A DNA stretch of 60,451 nucleotides, the filler included. It is 5 parts of 5 records of this genome, joined end to end, with 100 filler letters (N's around TTAATTAATTAA, not from the genome) between each part and the next. Parts side by side here need not be neighbours in the genome. Positions count along the whole stretch, not along the records: positions 23,366 to 37,176 come from SRR31147125_57519; 4 more parts are not named here. The stretch is one strand, 5' to 3'. Shown in pieces: positions 9,721 to 27,410 of the stretch. Below the pieces are notes generated by a model. The model saw nothing but the letters and a program-made list of their open reading frames with translations. It was not told where the DNA came from and made no database searches. Numbering within the stretch: the stretch's first letter is position 1; each line of letters begins with the position of its first letter. A program made the translations under genes and the position numbers.

Positions 9721-9739
9721 GTGACACTATAGTAGTGTA

Positions 9740-9816
9740 ATTGCAGGGGTGGCCCCCGGGCCTGAGATGATACCCATTGAACCTGATCTGGCTCATACCA
9801 GCGTAGGGAACCGCAG
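9740..9816 (+). ncRNA. TPP (THI-box) riboswitch
   Basis: GGGG...CTGAGA...ACCC..TGAACCTGATCTGG.TCATACCAGCGTAGGGAA consensus, upstream of thiM. Confidence 0.93.
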
Positions 9817-9911
9817 TCTTTCAATCGATCCATTCTTCTCCGGCCCAGAACTCCCGATTTATCGGATGCCGCCACCTGCAGGAACCAAGCCCTGTTCACC
9901 AAGGAGGTGTC

Positions 9912-23265: not shown

Positions 23266-23365
23266 NNNNNNNNNNNNNNNNNNNNNNNNNNNNNNNNNNN
23301 NNNNNNNNNTTAATTAATTAANNNNNNNNNNNNNNNNNNNNNNNNNNNNNNNNNNNNNNNNNNNN
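23266..23365. other. Artificial contig spacer
   Basis: N-run with TTAATTAATTAA linker. Confidence 0.97.
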
Positions 23366-23493
23366 TAAAACCGATAAGTGACGCTGTAGGGTTAACCTGG
23401 AATTTTTATTTGTATGCCGGGCTAAACGGGTACGGATTTCAAATCGGTCCCCGTTTACCGTTTACCTCCGTAAAGCGATGGACAGTCAATCGA

Positions 23494-24783
23494 TTATACG
23501 GTTCCCATCTCTACCCGGTGATATCGTTTTTTACCGGCCCTCAGCAAAATTCCGTTTTCATTGACCTGTTCTGCGGTGATCATCTGATCAAACGCCTGAA
23601 CCGCCTGATCATCGATGTAAGCGCCGCCCTGTTTGATCAGTCGTCTGGCATCTCCGGCGGACTTGCAAAGCCCCACCCGCTGAAACAGCTGATAGGCGGG
23701 AATGCCTTGGCTCAGCTCATTTTCGGGAATCCGGGTGGTTGGCAGGGTCGGGGGCGTGGCCGTTCTTTTCTCCCTCGGGATGGTGCTGGAAGGAAGCATG
23801 CCGGCGGGAATTTCCTTTGCGCCGAATGCTGCCGCTGTGGCATCCTGAGCTTTGAGGGCCTCTTGTCGACCATGGGCAAGAGCGGTCGCTTCAAACGCCA
23901 GTATCTGTTTGGCACTGTTGAGATCGGCGCCGGTGACGGTATCCAGCGCTTTGATTTCCTCCATGGGAAGAAAGGTGAACAGCGCCGTGAATTTGGCGAC
24001 GTCCCGATCATCGGTGTTGACCCAGAATTGGTAGTAATCGTATGGAGAGGTCTTCTCGGGATCCAGCCAGACGGCACCGCTGGCGGTTTTCCCCATCTTG
24101 CTGCCGTCGCTTTTGGTGATCAGCTTGAAGGTGATGCCGAATACGGTTTTCTGACGGGTGCGTCGAACCAGCTCCACTCCGGCCACAATGTTTCCCCATT
24201 GATCGCTGCCACCCATCTGCAGCATGCAGTTGTGGCGATCAAAAAGCTGCAGGAAGTCATAGGCCTGGAGCACCTGGTAGTTGAACTCGATGAAACTCAA
24301 CCCCTCGTCGGATTCGATTCTCTGGCGATAGCTCTCCGCCTTGATCATCCGGTTGATGCTGAAGTGTCGTCCGATATCTCGAAGAAAGGGGATATATTCC
24401 AGCGTCCTCAACCAATCGGCATTGTTCCCGAGAATCGCTTTTCCTTCATTGAAGTCGATGAAGTGGGAGAGCTGGCCTTTCAGCGCCTGAACGTTATCTT
24501 CGATGGTCTCGTAGGTCATCATCTTTCGCATTTCCGTCTTGCCGCTGGGATCGCCGATCATACCGGTGCCGCCACCCACGAGGGCAATGGGGATGTGACC
24601 GTTTCGCTGCATGTGCGCCAGAGACATGATGGGAATGAGATGGCCCACATGAAGACTGTCGGCTGTGGGGTCAAAACCGATGTAGCAGCTGCCGCCCTCC
24701 TTGGCGAGGTATTCGGCAAGCTCTTCTTCATGGGTTTGGTTTTCGATAAAGCCGCGCTCTTTCAGGATGTCTAAAACATTCAT
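23494..24783 (-). CDS. tyrS: Tyrosine--tRNA ligase
   Basis: YIGFDPTADSLHVGH, QAYDF, GGSDQWGN, KMGKT, C-terminal S4 domain. Confidence 0.97.
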   Translation of the reverse strand: MNVLDILKERGFIENQTHEEELAEYLAKEGGSCYIGFDPTADSLHVGHLIPIMSLAHMQRNGHIPIALVGGGTGMIGDPSGKTEMRKMMTYETIEDNVQALKGQLSHFIDFNEGKAILGNNADWLRTLEYIPFLRDIGRHFSINRMIKAESYRQRIESDEGLSFIEFNYQVLQAYDFLQLFDRHNCMLQMGGSDQWGNIVAGVELVRRTRQKTVFGITFKLITKSDGSKMGKTASGAVWLDPEKTSPYDYYQFWVNTDDRDVAKFTALFTFLPMEEIKALDTVTGADLNSAKQILAFEATALAHGRQEALKAQDATAAAFGAKEIPAGMLPSSTIPREKRTATPPTLPTTRIPENELSQGIPAYQLFQRVGLCKSAGDARRLIKQGGAYIDDQAVQAFDQMITAEQVNENGILLRAGKKRYHRVEMGTV

Positions 24784-24809
24784 TTTATATTTGTCCTATA
24801 TCTTGGTTG

Positions 24810-24850
24810 AAAAAAGGGCCGCATAGCCAAAAAGCTTTGCGACCCTTTTT
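24810..24850 (-). terminator. Intrinsic terminator (attenuator) in the tyrS leader
   Basis: Minus strand AAAAAGGGTCGCA-AAGC-TTTTTG-GCTA-TGCGGCCCTTTTTT, about 27 nt before the tyrS ATG. Confidence 0.8.
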
Positions 24851-24905
24851 AAAATATTTGGTGCCGCAGGCTTTGTGTTCCGCGGCATCTGTTTTTGATC
24901 ATGCT

Positions 24906-25001
24906 CTATTGGAGAGTGGGGATACCACGGTGTGTTATATATGAATAATATCGATAATAATAGTCATCGTTTTCAACATAGTTCATCTTTTGGCGTCCCA
25001 T
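24906..25001 (-). CDS. Putative Tyr-rich leader peptide of tyrS
   Basis: AAGGAG RBS; MGRQKMNYVENDDYYYRYYSYITHRGIPTLQ* with 7 TAT codons. Confidence 0.8.
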   Translation of the reverse strand: MGRQKMNYVENDDYYYRYYSYITHRGIPTLQ

Positions 25002-25026
25002 TCAATTCTCCTTGTTTTTTCAGATG

Positions 25027-25055
25027 TTAATAAGCCAACGCCTATTGAAAGTCAA
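25027..25055 (-). promoter_or_regulatory. Sigma70 promoter for leader-tyrS
   Basis: TTGACT-N17-TATTAA upstream of the leader RBS. Confidence 0.5.
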
Positions 25056-25150
25056 GATCATTTTCTTTGTAGCAGGCCGACGCTTATTAACCGTGAAAAG
25101 GATACTCCCTTTCGGGATGAGATAGAAGAAAAAAAGAGGGACTAATTCTG

Positions 25151-25195
25151 TGAACAATATGAACAAAATGATCTTAATAAATTTAAAACTCTTTA
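25151..25195 (+). promoter_or_regulatory. Tandem AT-rich 9-mers, putative DcuR/CitB-type operator
   Basis: TGAACAATA TGAACAAAA TGATCTTAA TAAATTTAA upstream of the dcu gene. Confidence 0.45.
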
Positions 25196-25240
25196 ATTTT
25201 CAAATATTTACCTTGCTCGAAAAGTATTGTACCTATCTTT

Positions 25241-25276
25241 CCGAATTCAAGTGAACAGGCGCCGAATTCAAGTGAA
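25241..25276 (+). repeat. 15-bp perfect direct repeat, 21-bp period
   Basis: CCGAATTCAAGTGAA at 25241 and 25262. Confidence 0.9.
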
Positions 25277-25396
25277 TATGCGGTTTGGTAATAAAAGCAA
25301 ACTGCAATGGTTCAAAGAGTAATGGAAGGGAGATTTTTTTGTCATTTATACATTGATTGACAATGCAATGCGTTTTCAGTCGAAGGAGAGTGTATC

Positions 25397-26722
25397 ATGT
25401 TGTATGTTCAGTTTCTATTTTTGCTTCTCATGCTTTATATCGGCAGTCGATACGGCGGTATCGGTCTGGGCGTCATTTCCGGTATCGGTCTTGCCATCGA
25501 GGTATTTGTCTTTCAGATGCCCCCGTCTTCGCCGCCCATCACCGTCATGCTCATCATCATGGCTGTGGTGACCTGTGCCTCCATCCTCGAGGCGGCAGGT
25601 GGGCTCAAATATATGCTTCAATTGGCGGAGCGGCTATTGAGATCCAACCCCAAGATGGTCTCATTACTAGGGCCCTTGGTCACCTACACCATGACCTTCA
25701 TGCTGGGGACCGGTCATGCGGTTTATTCCGTCATGCCCATTATCGGCGATGTGGCCCTTAAAAACGACATCCGACCGGAACGCCCCATGGCGGCCGCCTC
25801 CGTGGCTGCCCAGATGGGAATCACCGCAAGCCCCATCTCTGCGGCAGTGGTCTACTATCTTTCCCAATTGACGGACATCAGCGCGGATATCACCTTACTC
25901 TCCATTCTCGGCGTGACCATTCCTGCGACCCTCACCGGTGTCATTGTCATGTCCCTCTATAGTATGAGACGAGGGGTGGAGCTGAAAGACGATCCTGAAT
26001 ATCAAAGACGGATGGCAGATCCGGTGTGGCGAAAAAGAATTGAAGAGACCACGGCCACCACCTTGAACGAGGTGCTGCCGGCAGCGGCAAAACAGTCGGT
26101 CATTCTTTTTGCATTGGCGCTGGTTACCATCGTCATCATTGCCATGTTTCCGGAGATTAGAACCATTTCAGGCAGTGAGAAAGCCATCAAGATGTCCATC
26201 ATTATCCAGATGATGATGCTGGCTTTCGGCGGTCTCATCCTGCTTGTCACCAAAACCAATGCCTCCAAAGTACCCGAAGGGGTGGTCTTCAAATCGGGAA
26301 TGGTGGCGGCCATCGCCATTTTCGGTATCGCCTGGATGAGTGACACCTATTTCAAGTTTGCCCTTCCCAGTTTCAAGGCCGGTATCGTCGACATGGTACA
26401 AAACTACCCCTGGACTTTTGCGCTTGCCATGTTCATCGTATCCGTTGTGGTCAACAGTCAGGCGGCCACCTGTCGGATGATGTTGCCCGTGGCACTGGGA
26501 ATGGGCCTTTCTCCGGCATTGGTCATCGGGATCATGCCCTCTTGCTACGGATATTTTTTCATCCCCAACTATCCGTCGGATATCGCCACCTGCACATTCG
26601 ACACCACCGGAACGACGCGCATCGGGAAATACTATTTCAACCACAGCTTCATGCTGCCCGGTCTCATCGGAGTTTCCGTCGCTTGTTGTGTGGGCTATAC
26701 CGTGGCTCAAGTATTCATTTAA
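25397..26722 (+). CDS. Anaerobic C4-dicarboxylate transporter (DcuA/DcuB family)
   Basis: GSRYGGIGLG, GTGH, RPERP, ITASPISAA, NSQAAT, YPSD, GTTRIGKY.FNHSF. Confidence 0.92.
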   Translation: MLYVQFLFLLLMLYIGSRYGGIGLGVISGIGLAIEVFVFQMPPSSPPITVMLIIMAVVTCASILEAAGGLKYMLQLAERLLRSNPKMVSLLGPLVTYTMTFMLGTGHAVYSVMPIIGDVALKNDIRPERPMAAASVAAQMGITASPISAAVVYYLSQLTDISADITLLSILGVTIPATLTGVIVMSLYSMRRGVELKDDPEYQRRMADPVWRKRIEETTATTLNEVLPAAAKQSVILFALALVTIVIIAMFPEIRTISGSEKAIKMSIIIQMMMLAFGGLILLVTKTNASKVPEGVVFKSGMVAAIAIFGIAWMSDTYFKFALPSFKAGIVDMVQNYPWTFALAMFIVSVVVNSQAATCRMMLPVALGMGLSPALVIGIMPSCYGYFFIPNYPSDIATCTFDTTGTTRIGKYYFNHSFMLPGLIGVSVACCVGYTVAQVFI

Positions 26723-27410
26723 GTCCGGAGTCGAAATAGCGCCTTTCCGGGCGCCCCACACTGCCGTAAATCACATCGGCTTTGAGTTCTCCGGTGGTGA
26801 TCATGTACTCCAGATAGCGCCGGGCGGTGGAGCGGCTGGCACCGATCCGCTCTCCCACCTCTTCGGCGCTCATTCCCTTTTCAGGGGCGGGTTGAAACGT
26901 CTGTTTCACCTTCCCCAAGGTCAATACATCAATACCTTTGGGAACATCCGAGCGGGTGTCCGAGGGGATGGGCGGGAGGGAGTGACTGAGTTCGTCTATT
27001 CGTTTCTGATCAAGTGTCCCTTCCTGCTGCAACTGCTGTTGAAATGCCCGATAACGCGTTAGTGTCTGCTCAAATCGTGAAAAAATCACCGGTTTTACCA
27101 GGTAATCAAATGCTCCGGCCCGCAACGCCTGTTGTACATCCGCCACATGCCTGGCCGCCGTAATCAGTATGGCATCGACGGCCTTCCCTTGCCCCCTGAG
27201 TCGCTGCAACAGCGCCATGCCGTTGCCATCCGGCATGTAGAGATCCAAAAGCAGTAGATCCGGTGTGAGTAGATTCACAAGTTCTCCCGCCTGCTCCAGA
27301 TCCTGGGCAATGCCCACCACTTCAAATCCTTTGATTTTATCGACAAAATAACGGTGCATCTCAGCAATTGGGGGATCATCCTCGATGATCAAAAGGCGTA
27401 ACGGTTTCAT
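26715..27410 (-). CDS. CitB/DcuR family response regulator
   Basis: IIEDD, LLDLYMPDG, DYLVKP, KGID..TL, SR.TARRYLEY, YG.VGRP. Confidence 0.9.
   Translation of the reverse strand: MKPLRLLIIEDDPPIAEMHRYFVDKIKGFEVVGIAQDLEQAGELVNLLTPDLLLLDLYMPDGNGMALLQRLRGQGKAVDAILITAARHVADVQQALRAGAFDYLVKPVIFSRFEQTLTRYRAFQQQLQQEGTLDQKRIDELSHSLPPIPSDTRSDVPKGIDVLTLGKVKQTFQPAPEKGMSAEEVGERIGASRSTARRYLEYMITTGELKADVIYGSVGRPERRYFDSGLK

Follow-up and report, generated by a model that had tools for sequence, protein, structure and literature searches.

How can a bacterium match the synthesis of tyrosyl-tRNA synthetase to its supply of charged tRNA-Tyr? The question is raised by a tyrS gene on the minus strand of the stretch of DNA analysed here (60,451 nucleotides (nt), referred to as the window), where the original prediction had placed a tyrosine-sensing leader-peptide attenuator: a short open reading frame (ORF) rich in Tyr codons, a set of complementary RNA segments and a terminator. 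Leader-peptide attenuation controls the Trp, His, Leu, Ile/Val, Thr and Phe operons as well as pheST, and tyrS is a classic T-box gene; tyrosine is, to our knowledge, the missing aromatic case of leader-peptide attenuation. The element is best explained as a leader-peptide attenuator of transcription through which tyrS expression follows the supply of charged tRNA-Tyr, with a probability that we put at about 0.77. The evidence for it comes from a leader conserved among relatives, from the conservation of both of its alternative folds and from the folding of partial transcripts of the window under a ribosome mask.

Reading the sequence of the window, all elements of the prediction (promoter hexamers, ribosome-binding site, ORF, five segments, U6 run and tyrS) are present on the minus strand at the following positions:

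25027-25055, minus strand: promoter-like site, TTGACT (25055-25050), a 17-nt spacer and TATTAA (25032-25027), read from the sequence
25008-25013, minus strand: Shine-Dalgarno sequence AAGGAG, 6 nt 5′ of the leader ATG, read from the sequence
24906-25001, minus strand: leader ORF MGRQKMNYVENDDYYYRYYSYITHRGIPTLQ, 31 codons plus stop, from the sequence and the ORF listing
24991-24999, minus strand: segment 0, potential partner of segment 1 in a helix around the Tyr codons that is weak in the window
24980-24978, minus strand: additional TAT codon outside the cluster
24939-24962, minus strand: putative regulatory Tyr cluster, codons 14-16, 18, 19 and 21, all TAT
24921-24930, minus strand: segment 1, CCGUGGUAUC, at the 3′ end of the leader ORF, with segment 2 as partner
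24880-24889, minus strand: segment 2, GAUGCCGCGG, common to helices 1:2 and 2:3
24861-24869, minus strand: segment 3, CUGCGGCAC, with segment 2 or segment 4 as partner
24810-24850, minus strand: predicted intrinsic terminator, consisting of A-run, arm 4, inner stem-loop, arm 5 and U6
24845-24838, minus strand: terminator arm 4 (segment 4), GGGUCGCA
24823-24816, minus strand: terminator arm 5 (segment 5), UGCGGCCC
24815-24810, minus strand: U6 run of the terminator
24794-24797, minus strand: tyrS Shine-Dalgarno sequence AGGA, 10 nt 5′ of the ATG
23494-24783, minus strand: tyrS, tyrosine--tRNA ligase, 429 amino acids, ATG at 24783, identified with Pfam and NCBIfam

The identity of the downstream gene is clear: its product matches Pfam tRNA-synt_1b with 293 bits, together with SYY_C-terminal, and the NCBIfam equivalog TIGR00234 (tyrS) with 407.9 bits against a cutoff of 113.8. 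The ORF listing and a codon count bear out the 31-codon leader at 25001-24906 with seven TAT codons between codons 8 and 21 (codons 8, 14, 15, 16, 18, 19 and 21) and no TAC. Across all six frames, the 60-kb window contains a single stop-free run of 14 codons with seven or more Tyr, and none arose in 60 first-order Markov simulations. This unique cluster, together with the same layout in front of tyrS in seven other distinct sequences described below, shows that the Tyr cluster of the window leader is not a product of chance. The terminator hairpin, folded alone, has an energy of about -19.5 kcal/mol and is GC-rich and followed by U6; the consensus scan did not list it, its inner loop falling outside the scan's simple stem rule. 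From the U-run to the tyrS ATG the gap is 26 nt, and the consensus scan of the window returned no promoter-like site between terminator and tyrS.

From this arrangement we infer how stalling, its timing, termination and read-through would be connected in the tyrS leader. Transcription would start approximately 20 nt 5′ of the short, well-initiated ORF with its seven Tyr codons. When Tyr-tRNA is plentiful, the ribosome would traverse segment 1 and reach the stop codon during synthesis of segments 2 and 3, so that 2:3 would form, arm 4 would stay free, and the 4:5 terminator would form and end transcription at U6. When Tyr-tRNA is scarce, the ribosome would stall in the YYY-R-YY-S-Y cluster, upstream of segment 1, which could then capture segment 2 as it emerges; segment 3 would pair with arm 4 as an antiterminator, and transcription would read through into tyrS. 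A run search listed one DNA run that contains this stretch and no RNA run.

A survey of the tyrS upstream regions of relatives, the check put forward with the original prediction, found a conserved Tyr-codon upstream ORF (uORF) and terminator in eight distinct sequences of a single clade. A TyrS match was present in 340 of the 401 genomes in a sample of the order Desulfobacterales, and the tyrS loci surveyed were the best 80 from a species-genome collection, 30 from this order sample and the best 80 from metagenomes. Within the 500 nt 5′ of tyrS at these 190 loci and in the window (191 regions, 182 of them with at least 238 nt available), an ORF of 8-70 codons with at least four Tyr in any eight codons was found in 12. 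Eleven of these are the window and the loci L119, L002, L112, L061, L081, L008, L085, L003, L111 and L084, which reduce to eight distinct leaders, L081 representing the same place as L061 and L085 the same place as L008, while the leader of L119 is identical to that of L111. The filter alone is unspecific, because Leu, Arg, Ser and Pro passed it in 21, 17, 11 and 11 regions, respectively; the specificity resides in the distribution, as 11 of the 12 regions with a TyrS at least 68.0% identical to that of the window have a Tyr uORF and, below that value, only L176 does.

The latter locus (59% TyrS identity, MPVNRLIYIYVYSNYR) was rejected as a chance match, as it has neither a Shine-Dalgarno sequence nor GC-rich hairpins and is an AT-rich spacer right after the apparent end of the upstream gene. 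It also reached only 14.7 bits (E 0.72) with R1, a covariance model built from the alignment of the eight leaders with the terminating structure. Strong R1 matches (108-173 bits) were obtained only in the same nine sources among the window and 188 loci, where the 108.2 bits of the window are high by construction, the window being one of the eight model sequences. By uORF filter and R1 scan, the leader layout is absent from the approximately 180 other Desulfobacterales tyrS loci.

In a FastTree phylogeny of 86 TyrS proteins, drawn from 163 distinct full-length ones by taking the 60 most similar and then every fourth one of the remainder, the eight leader-bearing proteins and L001, the closest relative of the window, form one clade with a Shimodaira-Hasegawa (SH)-like support of 99, and an IQ-TREE analysis of 13 rows returned this clade with an SH approximate likelihood ratio test (SH-aLRT) value of 100. 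The Tyr leader is confined to one TyrS clade. Desulfosarcina alkanivorans PL12 has two tyrS genes approximately 200 kb apart on one chromosome: L061, whose product is 73% identical to that of the window and which has the Tyr leader, and L044, which is 64% identical and leaderless. Two other carriers, G001 and G004, each have a single tyrS match; the genome G238, like PL12, has two TyrS matches. Some genomes may have the leader-regulated tyrS as an additional, inducible gene and others as their sole copy.

The seven homologous Tyr-rich leaders (L002, L003, L008, L061, L084, L111, which equals L119, and L112) are 26-27 codons long, and each has a TTG or GTG start codon preceded at 6-9 nt by GGAG or AGGAG; the window alone uses ATG. 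The Tyr cores of the leader peptides are of the types YYY.GYY.Y, YYYRY or YYCGY, and a TATTATT core is invariant in the leader alignment. Each of the eight tyrS leaders has four to eight Tyr codons and is free of Trp codons, and a single Phe codon, in L008, is the only one among them. Within these Tyr codons, TAT outnumbers TAC by 41 to 7.

Such a codon preference could also be read as the signature of an attenuator that senses the capacity to decode with tRNA-Tyr and not the supply of tyrosine, slow reading of UAU leading to read-through. Candidate signals would be the queuosine-34 or 2-methylthio-N6-isopentenyladenosine-37 (ms2i6A-37) state of the tRNA, the abundance of tRNA-Tyr, or general translation speed. 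The window leader is all TAT (7/7), while tyrS itself has 5 TAT and 8 TAC, and miaA defects derepress classical attenuators in enterobacteria, all of which count in its favour. However, the TAT bias may merely reflect an AT-rich leader, and the regulated gene, tyrS, directly raises charging, which fits a charging sensor. We regard a pure decoding sensor as unlikely, and the two signals can coexist.

Beyond the Tyr codons, a conserved stretch, CAUAUCCGG..UGCCGUGGUG, spans segment 1, with the stop codon 8-13 nt further on. In the segment 1 core, an invariant G is the first base of a codon in the window, L002, L008 and L061 and the third in L112, L111, L003 and L084. The nucleotides of segment 1 are thus conserved in two reading frames, with four sequences each, which points to a constraint at the level of RNA and not of peptide. 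All eight leaders continue with a first hairpin, 2:3, and a second hairpin, 4:5, the latter preceded by an A-run and followed by a U-run. Judged by eye, a run of at least five U also follows the 2:3 hairpin in L111, L003, L112, L061 and L008 and four U follow it in L084, with no such run in the window or L002; on account of these U-runs, most relatives would have two terminator-like hairpins in tandem and the window only the second.

A natural loss of the element is seen in L001 (2100-2500 of that locus), whose TyrS is 90% identical to that of the window. This locus keeps a TTGACA box, a 2:3-like hairpin and the terminator arms with their U-run, the loop being two bases off that of the window, and has neither the Tyr codons nor segment 1, its ORF reading MRCDNDNHAAEH. 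Approximately 100 nt are inserted ahead of the terminator, and a promoter-like TTGGCA-17-TATACT (a 10/12 match, at 2355-2383 of the locus) lies between the terminator and tyrS, the only tyrS found in that genome. On sequence grounds, L001 looks like a case of attenuator decay with a bypass promoter.

That L001 tyrS seemingly uses a promoter 3′ of the terminator is also what would be expected if the leader encoded a functional Tyr-rich micropeptide, or a small RNA ended by the terminator, and tyrS were transcribed independently of it with no sensing involved. The strong Shine-Dalgarno sequence and a Tyr core conserved as peptide (YYY.GYY or YYYRY) would agree with such a product. The C-terminal half of the leader, however, is kept as nucleotides in two frames and not as peptide, and the 26 nt from U-run to ATG in the window contain no listed promoter-like site. 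Moreover, tyrS genes of a single clade are the only ones preceded by the element, genes of the aromatic pathway are the only ones preceded by its relatives, whose codon make-up corresponds, and the complementarity of 1:2 and 3:4 would be left unexplained, all of which makes an independent micropeptide or small RNA very unlikely.

The attenuator model predicts covarying helices in relatives, and both folds were found to be conserved, with two-sided changes in 2:3, 4:5 and 3:4. For these counts the eight leaders were realigned to R1 (alignment A3); MAFFT had set arm 4 of the window one column off. For the terminating fold (2:3 + 4:5), standard pairs fill 92.8% of 208 cells, compared with 39-60% when the partners are slid by 1-3 columns, and 8 of 26 pairs have changed on both sides, in 17 cells; its covariation score of 0.320, against 0.197 ± 0.023, was reached by none of 500 shuffles. 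Helix 2:3 has 90.6% of its cells paired and helix 4:5 94.6%, with four pairs changed on both sides in each. The competing fold (1:2 + 3:4) was counted on the same alignment, which had been built around the terminating fold; here standard pairs make up 86.2% of 167 cells versus 34-60% after sliding, and the covariation score is 0.218 against 0.154 ± 0.020, again reached by none of 500 shuffles. Three of its 21 pairs have changed on both sides, all of them in 3:4, where 83.3% of cells are paired.

Along the entire chain, one position covaries: segment 2 has C or U, segment 3 G or A, arm 4 C or U and arm 5 G or A. The window, L008 and L061 carry C,G,C,G and L002, L112, L111 and L084 carry U,A,U,A, while L003 has G in arm 5, giving a G-U pair. 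Three changes of state are needed on the best TyrS tree, of which strongly supported branches force only one. Nothing in the terminating fold calls for segment 3 to be linked to arm 4; an antiterminator predicts such a link. By the aligned sequences, both the terminating and the competing fold are conserved in register.

The 227-nt leader of the window has a minimum free energy (MFE) of -60.3 kcal/mol, which none of 200 shuffles reached (-40.5 ± 4.2, z -4.66), in a structure that includes the 2:3 hairpin and the 4:5 terminator. The prediction that 1:2, 2:3, 3:4 and 4:5 can all pair agrees with the duplex energies in the window, which are, compared with shuffled partners, -17.9 kcal/mol for 1:2 (z -4.6), -15.8 for 2:3 (z -2.6), -15.9 for 3:4 (z -4.1) and -25.5 for 4:5 (z -7.6). 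Across the eight leaders the z of duplex 3:4 ranges from -1.8 to -5.6, and duplex 1:2 is clear in five (z -2.2 to -5.1). A helix 0:1 enclosing the Tyr codons has a z of -2.5 or lower in six of the eight and is weak in L008.

The original prediction had also proposed folding under constraints that mimic ribosome occupancy, and here the fold of partial window transcripts followed the position of the mask. With a mask of 28 nt (-15/+12), the terminators of L061 and L008 being set by hand after automatic picking had taken the 2:3 hairpin, window transcripts that end ahead of arm 5 or of segment 3 fold into 1:2 + 3:4 when the ribosome stands in the middle of the cluster and segment 1 is free, segments 1 and 2 forming 10 pairs. 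When it stands at the last Tyr codon, over part of segment 1, 2:3 forms. Partial transcripts of L002 fold like those of the window in both truncated sets and those of L008 less cleanly, and in L111 and L003 1:2 appears only in transcripts cut before segment 3, 2:3 being kept once segment 3 is present.

Several results weigh against this picture. No switch was seen in any informative case among full-length folds at equilibrium, where 2:3 + 4:5 are kept in seven of eight sequences under all masks, and in the window the probability of 4:5 is 0.99 in all nine mask conditions. Because full-length equilibrium folding always gives the terminating fold, the switch must be kinetic, and since classical attenuators act kinetically, the lack of an equilibrium switch argues neither for nor against the model. 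In five of the eight leaders (L111, L112, L061, L003 and L084), 2:3, with hairpin energies of -17.6 to -23.8 kcal/mol in these homologues, stays the MFE structure even in transcripts cut before arm 5 with segment 1 free. The prediction that a ribosome covers segment 1 when Tyr-tRNA is plentiful holds only in part for the stop codon itself, where the footprint in the window covers only the last three of the ten bases; blocking of 1:2 would then have to come from the transit of the ribosome over segment 1 during synthesis of segments 2 and 3 and from its steric bulk between segments 1 and 2.

Further adverse points concern the individual helices and the promoter. Helix 1:2 has 90.1% of its cells paired with one-sided G-C/G-U alternation and no two-sided change, and its duplex is weak in L112 (z -0.8), L084 (-0.2) and L008 (-1.5). 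The covariation counts come from eight related sequences and a 1:2 + 3:4 structure derived from L111, both of which favour the counts. In the window, helix 0:1 (-12.0 kcal/mol, z -0.3) is at the level of chance, segment 0 being paired with 24927-24919 in the full-length MFE structure; an untranslated window leader may, for this reason, read through instead of terminating. The consensus scan did not list the promoter, the -10 hexamer of which ends in A and has no T at position 6. The promoter call therefore rests on the sequence of the window and on boxes in relatives seen by eye, TTGACA -35 boxes being similarly spaced in L001, L008 and L061 and weaker -35-like hexamers present in L002 and L003.

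Some of these points raise the possibility that the attenuator of the window genome is a decaying relic with constitutive termination or constitutive read-through. In its closest relative, L001, both the Tyr codons and segment 1 are gone; the 2:3 hairpin of the window has no U-run of the kind present in L111, L003, L112, L061 and L008; and the 0:1 helix is at chance level. Nevertheless, the Shine-Dalgarno sequence, the ATG, all Tyr codons, segments 1-5 and U6 are intact in the window, the 1:2 duplex is stronger than 2:3, the z of 3:4 holds at -4.1, and no promoter-like site like that of L001 lies between terminator and tyrS. A relic in the window is, on this balance, highly improbable, and a functional Tyr-sensing attenuator remains our preferred explanation.

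The leader also belongs to a wider family. When five carrier genomes were searched with R1, weaker full-length matches of 36-47 bits appeared besides the tyrS leaders. The leaders MTIRKTDSYYFYFWYYFYTGLPVLR and MNFCKADRFYFYFWYYFYTHLPVLR are each followed by a hairpin and U-run and then by a gene for 3-deoxy-D-arabino-heptulosonate 7-phosphate (DAHP) synthase, and the leader MVRSLFTDFFYFYFGYYFNTGLLRVFPM, in the genome closest to the window, is followed by two hairpins and the gene for chorismate mutase-prephenate dehydratase. R1 matches at E ≤0.001 occur in 65 of 151 genomes of the order, of which only that in G002 is of the tyrS kind. Among the 29 other loci fetched, 22 lie before a protein of approximately 265 amino acids with a common N-terminal motif, recognised by eye, represented in L199 by 2-amino-3,7-dideoxy-D-threo-hept-6-ulosonate (ADH) synthase (TIGR01949, 372 bits against 299). 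The rest lie before DAHP synthase (three), shikimate dehydrogenase (aroE, one) and a TrpD-like gene (one), and two are unclear.

Relatives outside the eight model sequences, which precede ADH synthase, DAHP synthase, pheA and aroE, score 36-78 bits over the full length of R1. The kinship of the trpD leader appears weaker: the TrpD-like locus L216 has a WWW leader and an R1 score of 51 bits that covers model positions 37-161 (the 3′ part) only. A core of the form ...GG(G)UAUUAU...AUACCGG.CUG..., followed by one or more hairpins and a U-run, is common to the family. The DAHP synthase leaders L196 and L198 have only the first hairpin, of the 2:3 type with U-run. Outside tyrS the leaders mix Phe, Tyr and Trp codons, ...FYFWYYYF.TGLP.VR being typical, and the pheA leader is a Phe-rich mixture of Phe and Tyr.

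That the codon content of the leader follows the regulated gene on a common RNA scaffold is the strongest indirect argument for the codons acting as the sensor. We consider it probable that a single Desulfobacterales attenuation scaffold has been re-coded, by codon replacement, for different aromatic aminoacyl-tRNAs and that its Tyr-only version was captured by one tyrS lineage. The mixed Phe/Tyr/Trp version would control entry into the shikimate pathway (ADH synthase and DAHP synthase), and the Phe-rich Phe/Tyr version would control pheA.

Curated RNA families do not account for the leader. Scanning 24600-25400 against Rfam with cmscan at E up to 10 returned no T-box, and the best Rfam match was Thr_leader, which at 19.8 bits stays below its gathering score of 55 and whose alignment runs over the 2:3 hairpin and the terminator. 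A T-box or another curated RNA leader family was rejected as an explanation, no leader family being found at gathering score on the whole window, and none of the five related leader loci scanned (L195, L196, L198, L111 and L061) had an Rfam family at gathering score.

These scans bear on the idea that the conserved hairpins are an operator for a protein, such as TyrRS regulating its own gene in the style of E. coli thrS, or for uncharged tRNA, with the uORF incidental. Aminoacyl-tRNA synthetase (aaRS) genes are commonly controlled in such ways, as with thrS in E. coli and T-boxes in Firmicutes (available part of PMC1262725). Apart from the missing T-box match, neither an anticodon-like nor a specifier feature was seen in the leader, and an operator would leave both the Tyr-only cluster and a segment 1 dependent on ribosome position unexplained. 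An operator function of the hairpins has, in consequence, a very small probability.

A charging sensor built on Tyr codons has several known counterparts. As in E. coli pheM-pheST, an aaRS gene follows a short ORF with codons for its own amino acid, a terminator and a competing antiterminator, with charging of the cognate tRNA as the presumed signal; unlike pheM-pheST, the amino acid and gene are Tyr and tyrS, the hosts are Desulfobacterales and not Gammaproteobacteria, no sequence relationship is detectable, and five to six alternating segments replace the classical four. In the enterobacterial his leader, too, segments pair with either neighbour and a stalled ribosome shifts the register and removes the terminator, the helices being A:B, C:D and E:F versus B:C and D:E. 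The 0:1 helix around the Tyr codons in six of the eight tyrS leaders would give a similar three-hairpin terminating state, yet the leader described here would sense Tyr and regulate a synthetase and not a biosynthetic operon, and 0:1 is weak in the window.

The T-box of Bacillus subtilis tyrS likewise sets terminator against antiterminator and increases read-through with uncharged tRNA-Tyr, but it binds uncharged tRNA without translation, whereas the present leader has a Tyr-codon ORF and no T-box match. Henkin et al. 1992 is among the references of PMC1262725. The aromatic leaders of Desulfobacterales are homologous RNAs that differ in mixing Phe, Tyr and Trp codons and in preceding biosynthetic genes. 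Predicted leader-peptide attenuators before aaRS genes outside Gammaproteobacteria also include the Streptomyces trpS2 and leuS candidates (available part of PMC1262725), which concern other amino acids, genes and a different phylum.

The original prediction had named no described Tyr leader on tyrS, and the literature within reach agrees: full-text searches, which also covered leader peptides in Desulfobacter, returned neither a Tyr-codon leader nor a tyrS attenuator, most subscription journals lying outside reach and a prior mention being possible. In its accessible portion, PMC1262725 lists candidate classical attenuators before trpS2 of Streptomyces avermitilis and leuS of S. avermitilis and S. 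coelicolor, gives pheST as the proteobacterial precedent, and describes tyrosine genes as T-box regulated in other species and as having no conserved RNA structure in Actinobacteria. According to the accessible text of PMC3082878, Desulfobacterium autotrophicum potentially uses a pheL gene, and the corresponding part of PMC2659441 contains nothing on tyrosine. The mechanism proposed for the tyrS leader is a known one and not new; no Tyr or tyrS case was found described.

The surroundings of the element in the window were also recorded. Divergent from the tyrS leader lies a gene for a DcuA/DcuB-type anaerobic C4-dicarboxylate transporter (25397-26722, plus strand), followed by a convergent response-regulator gene with a DpiA-like helix-turn-helix domain (26715-27410, minus strand), the 3′ end of which overlaps the transporter gene by 8 nt. 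A thiamine pyrophosphate (TPP) riboswitch (RF00059) is found at 9735-9826 on the plus strand with 64 bits against a gathering score of 54.3. Approximately 130 nt past tyrS, at 23300-23366, two runs of N flank the motif TTAATTAATTAA, and the contigs of many related loci likewise stop shortly past tyrS. The N runs and these contig ends suggest a repeat just downstream of tyrS, perhaps an rRNA operon, that breaks assemblies.

If the attenuator model is right, the tyrS leader would be the first leader-peptide attenuator specific to tyrosine, as well as the first to act on tyrS, and L001 would show how such elements decay. Its value is moderate, as the mechanism itself is not new. For annotation, approximately two-fifths of the sampled Desulfobacterales genomes (65/151) carry a related unannotated leader. 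With mixed-aromatic, Phe-leaning and Tyr-only versions on one scaffold, the family would offer a natural series for the evolution of attenuator specificity by codon replacement. A Tyr-codon attenuator on tyrS would further show that sensing by the ribosome meets, outside Firmicutes, the same need as the T-box, namely more synthetase when tRNA-Tyr is poorly charged.

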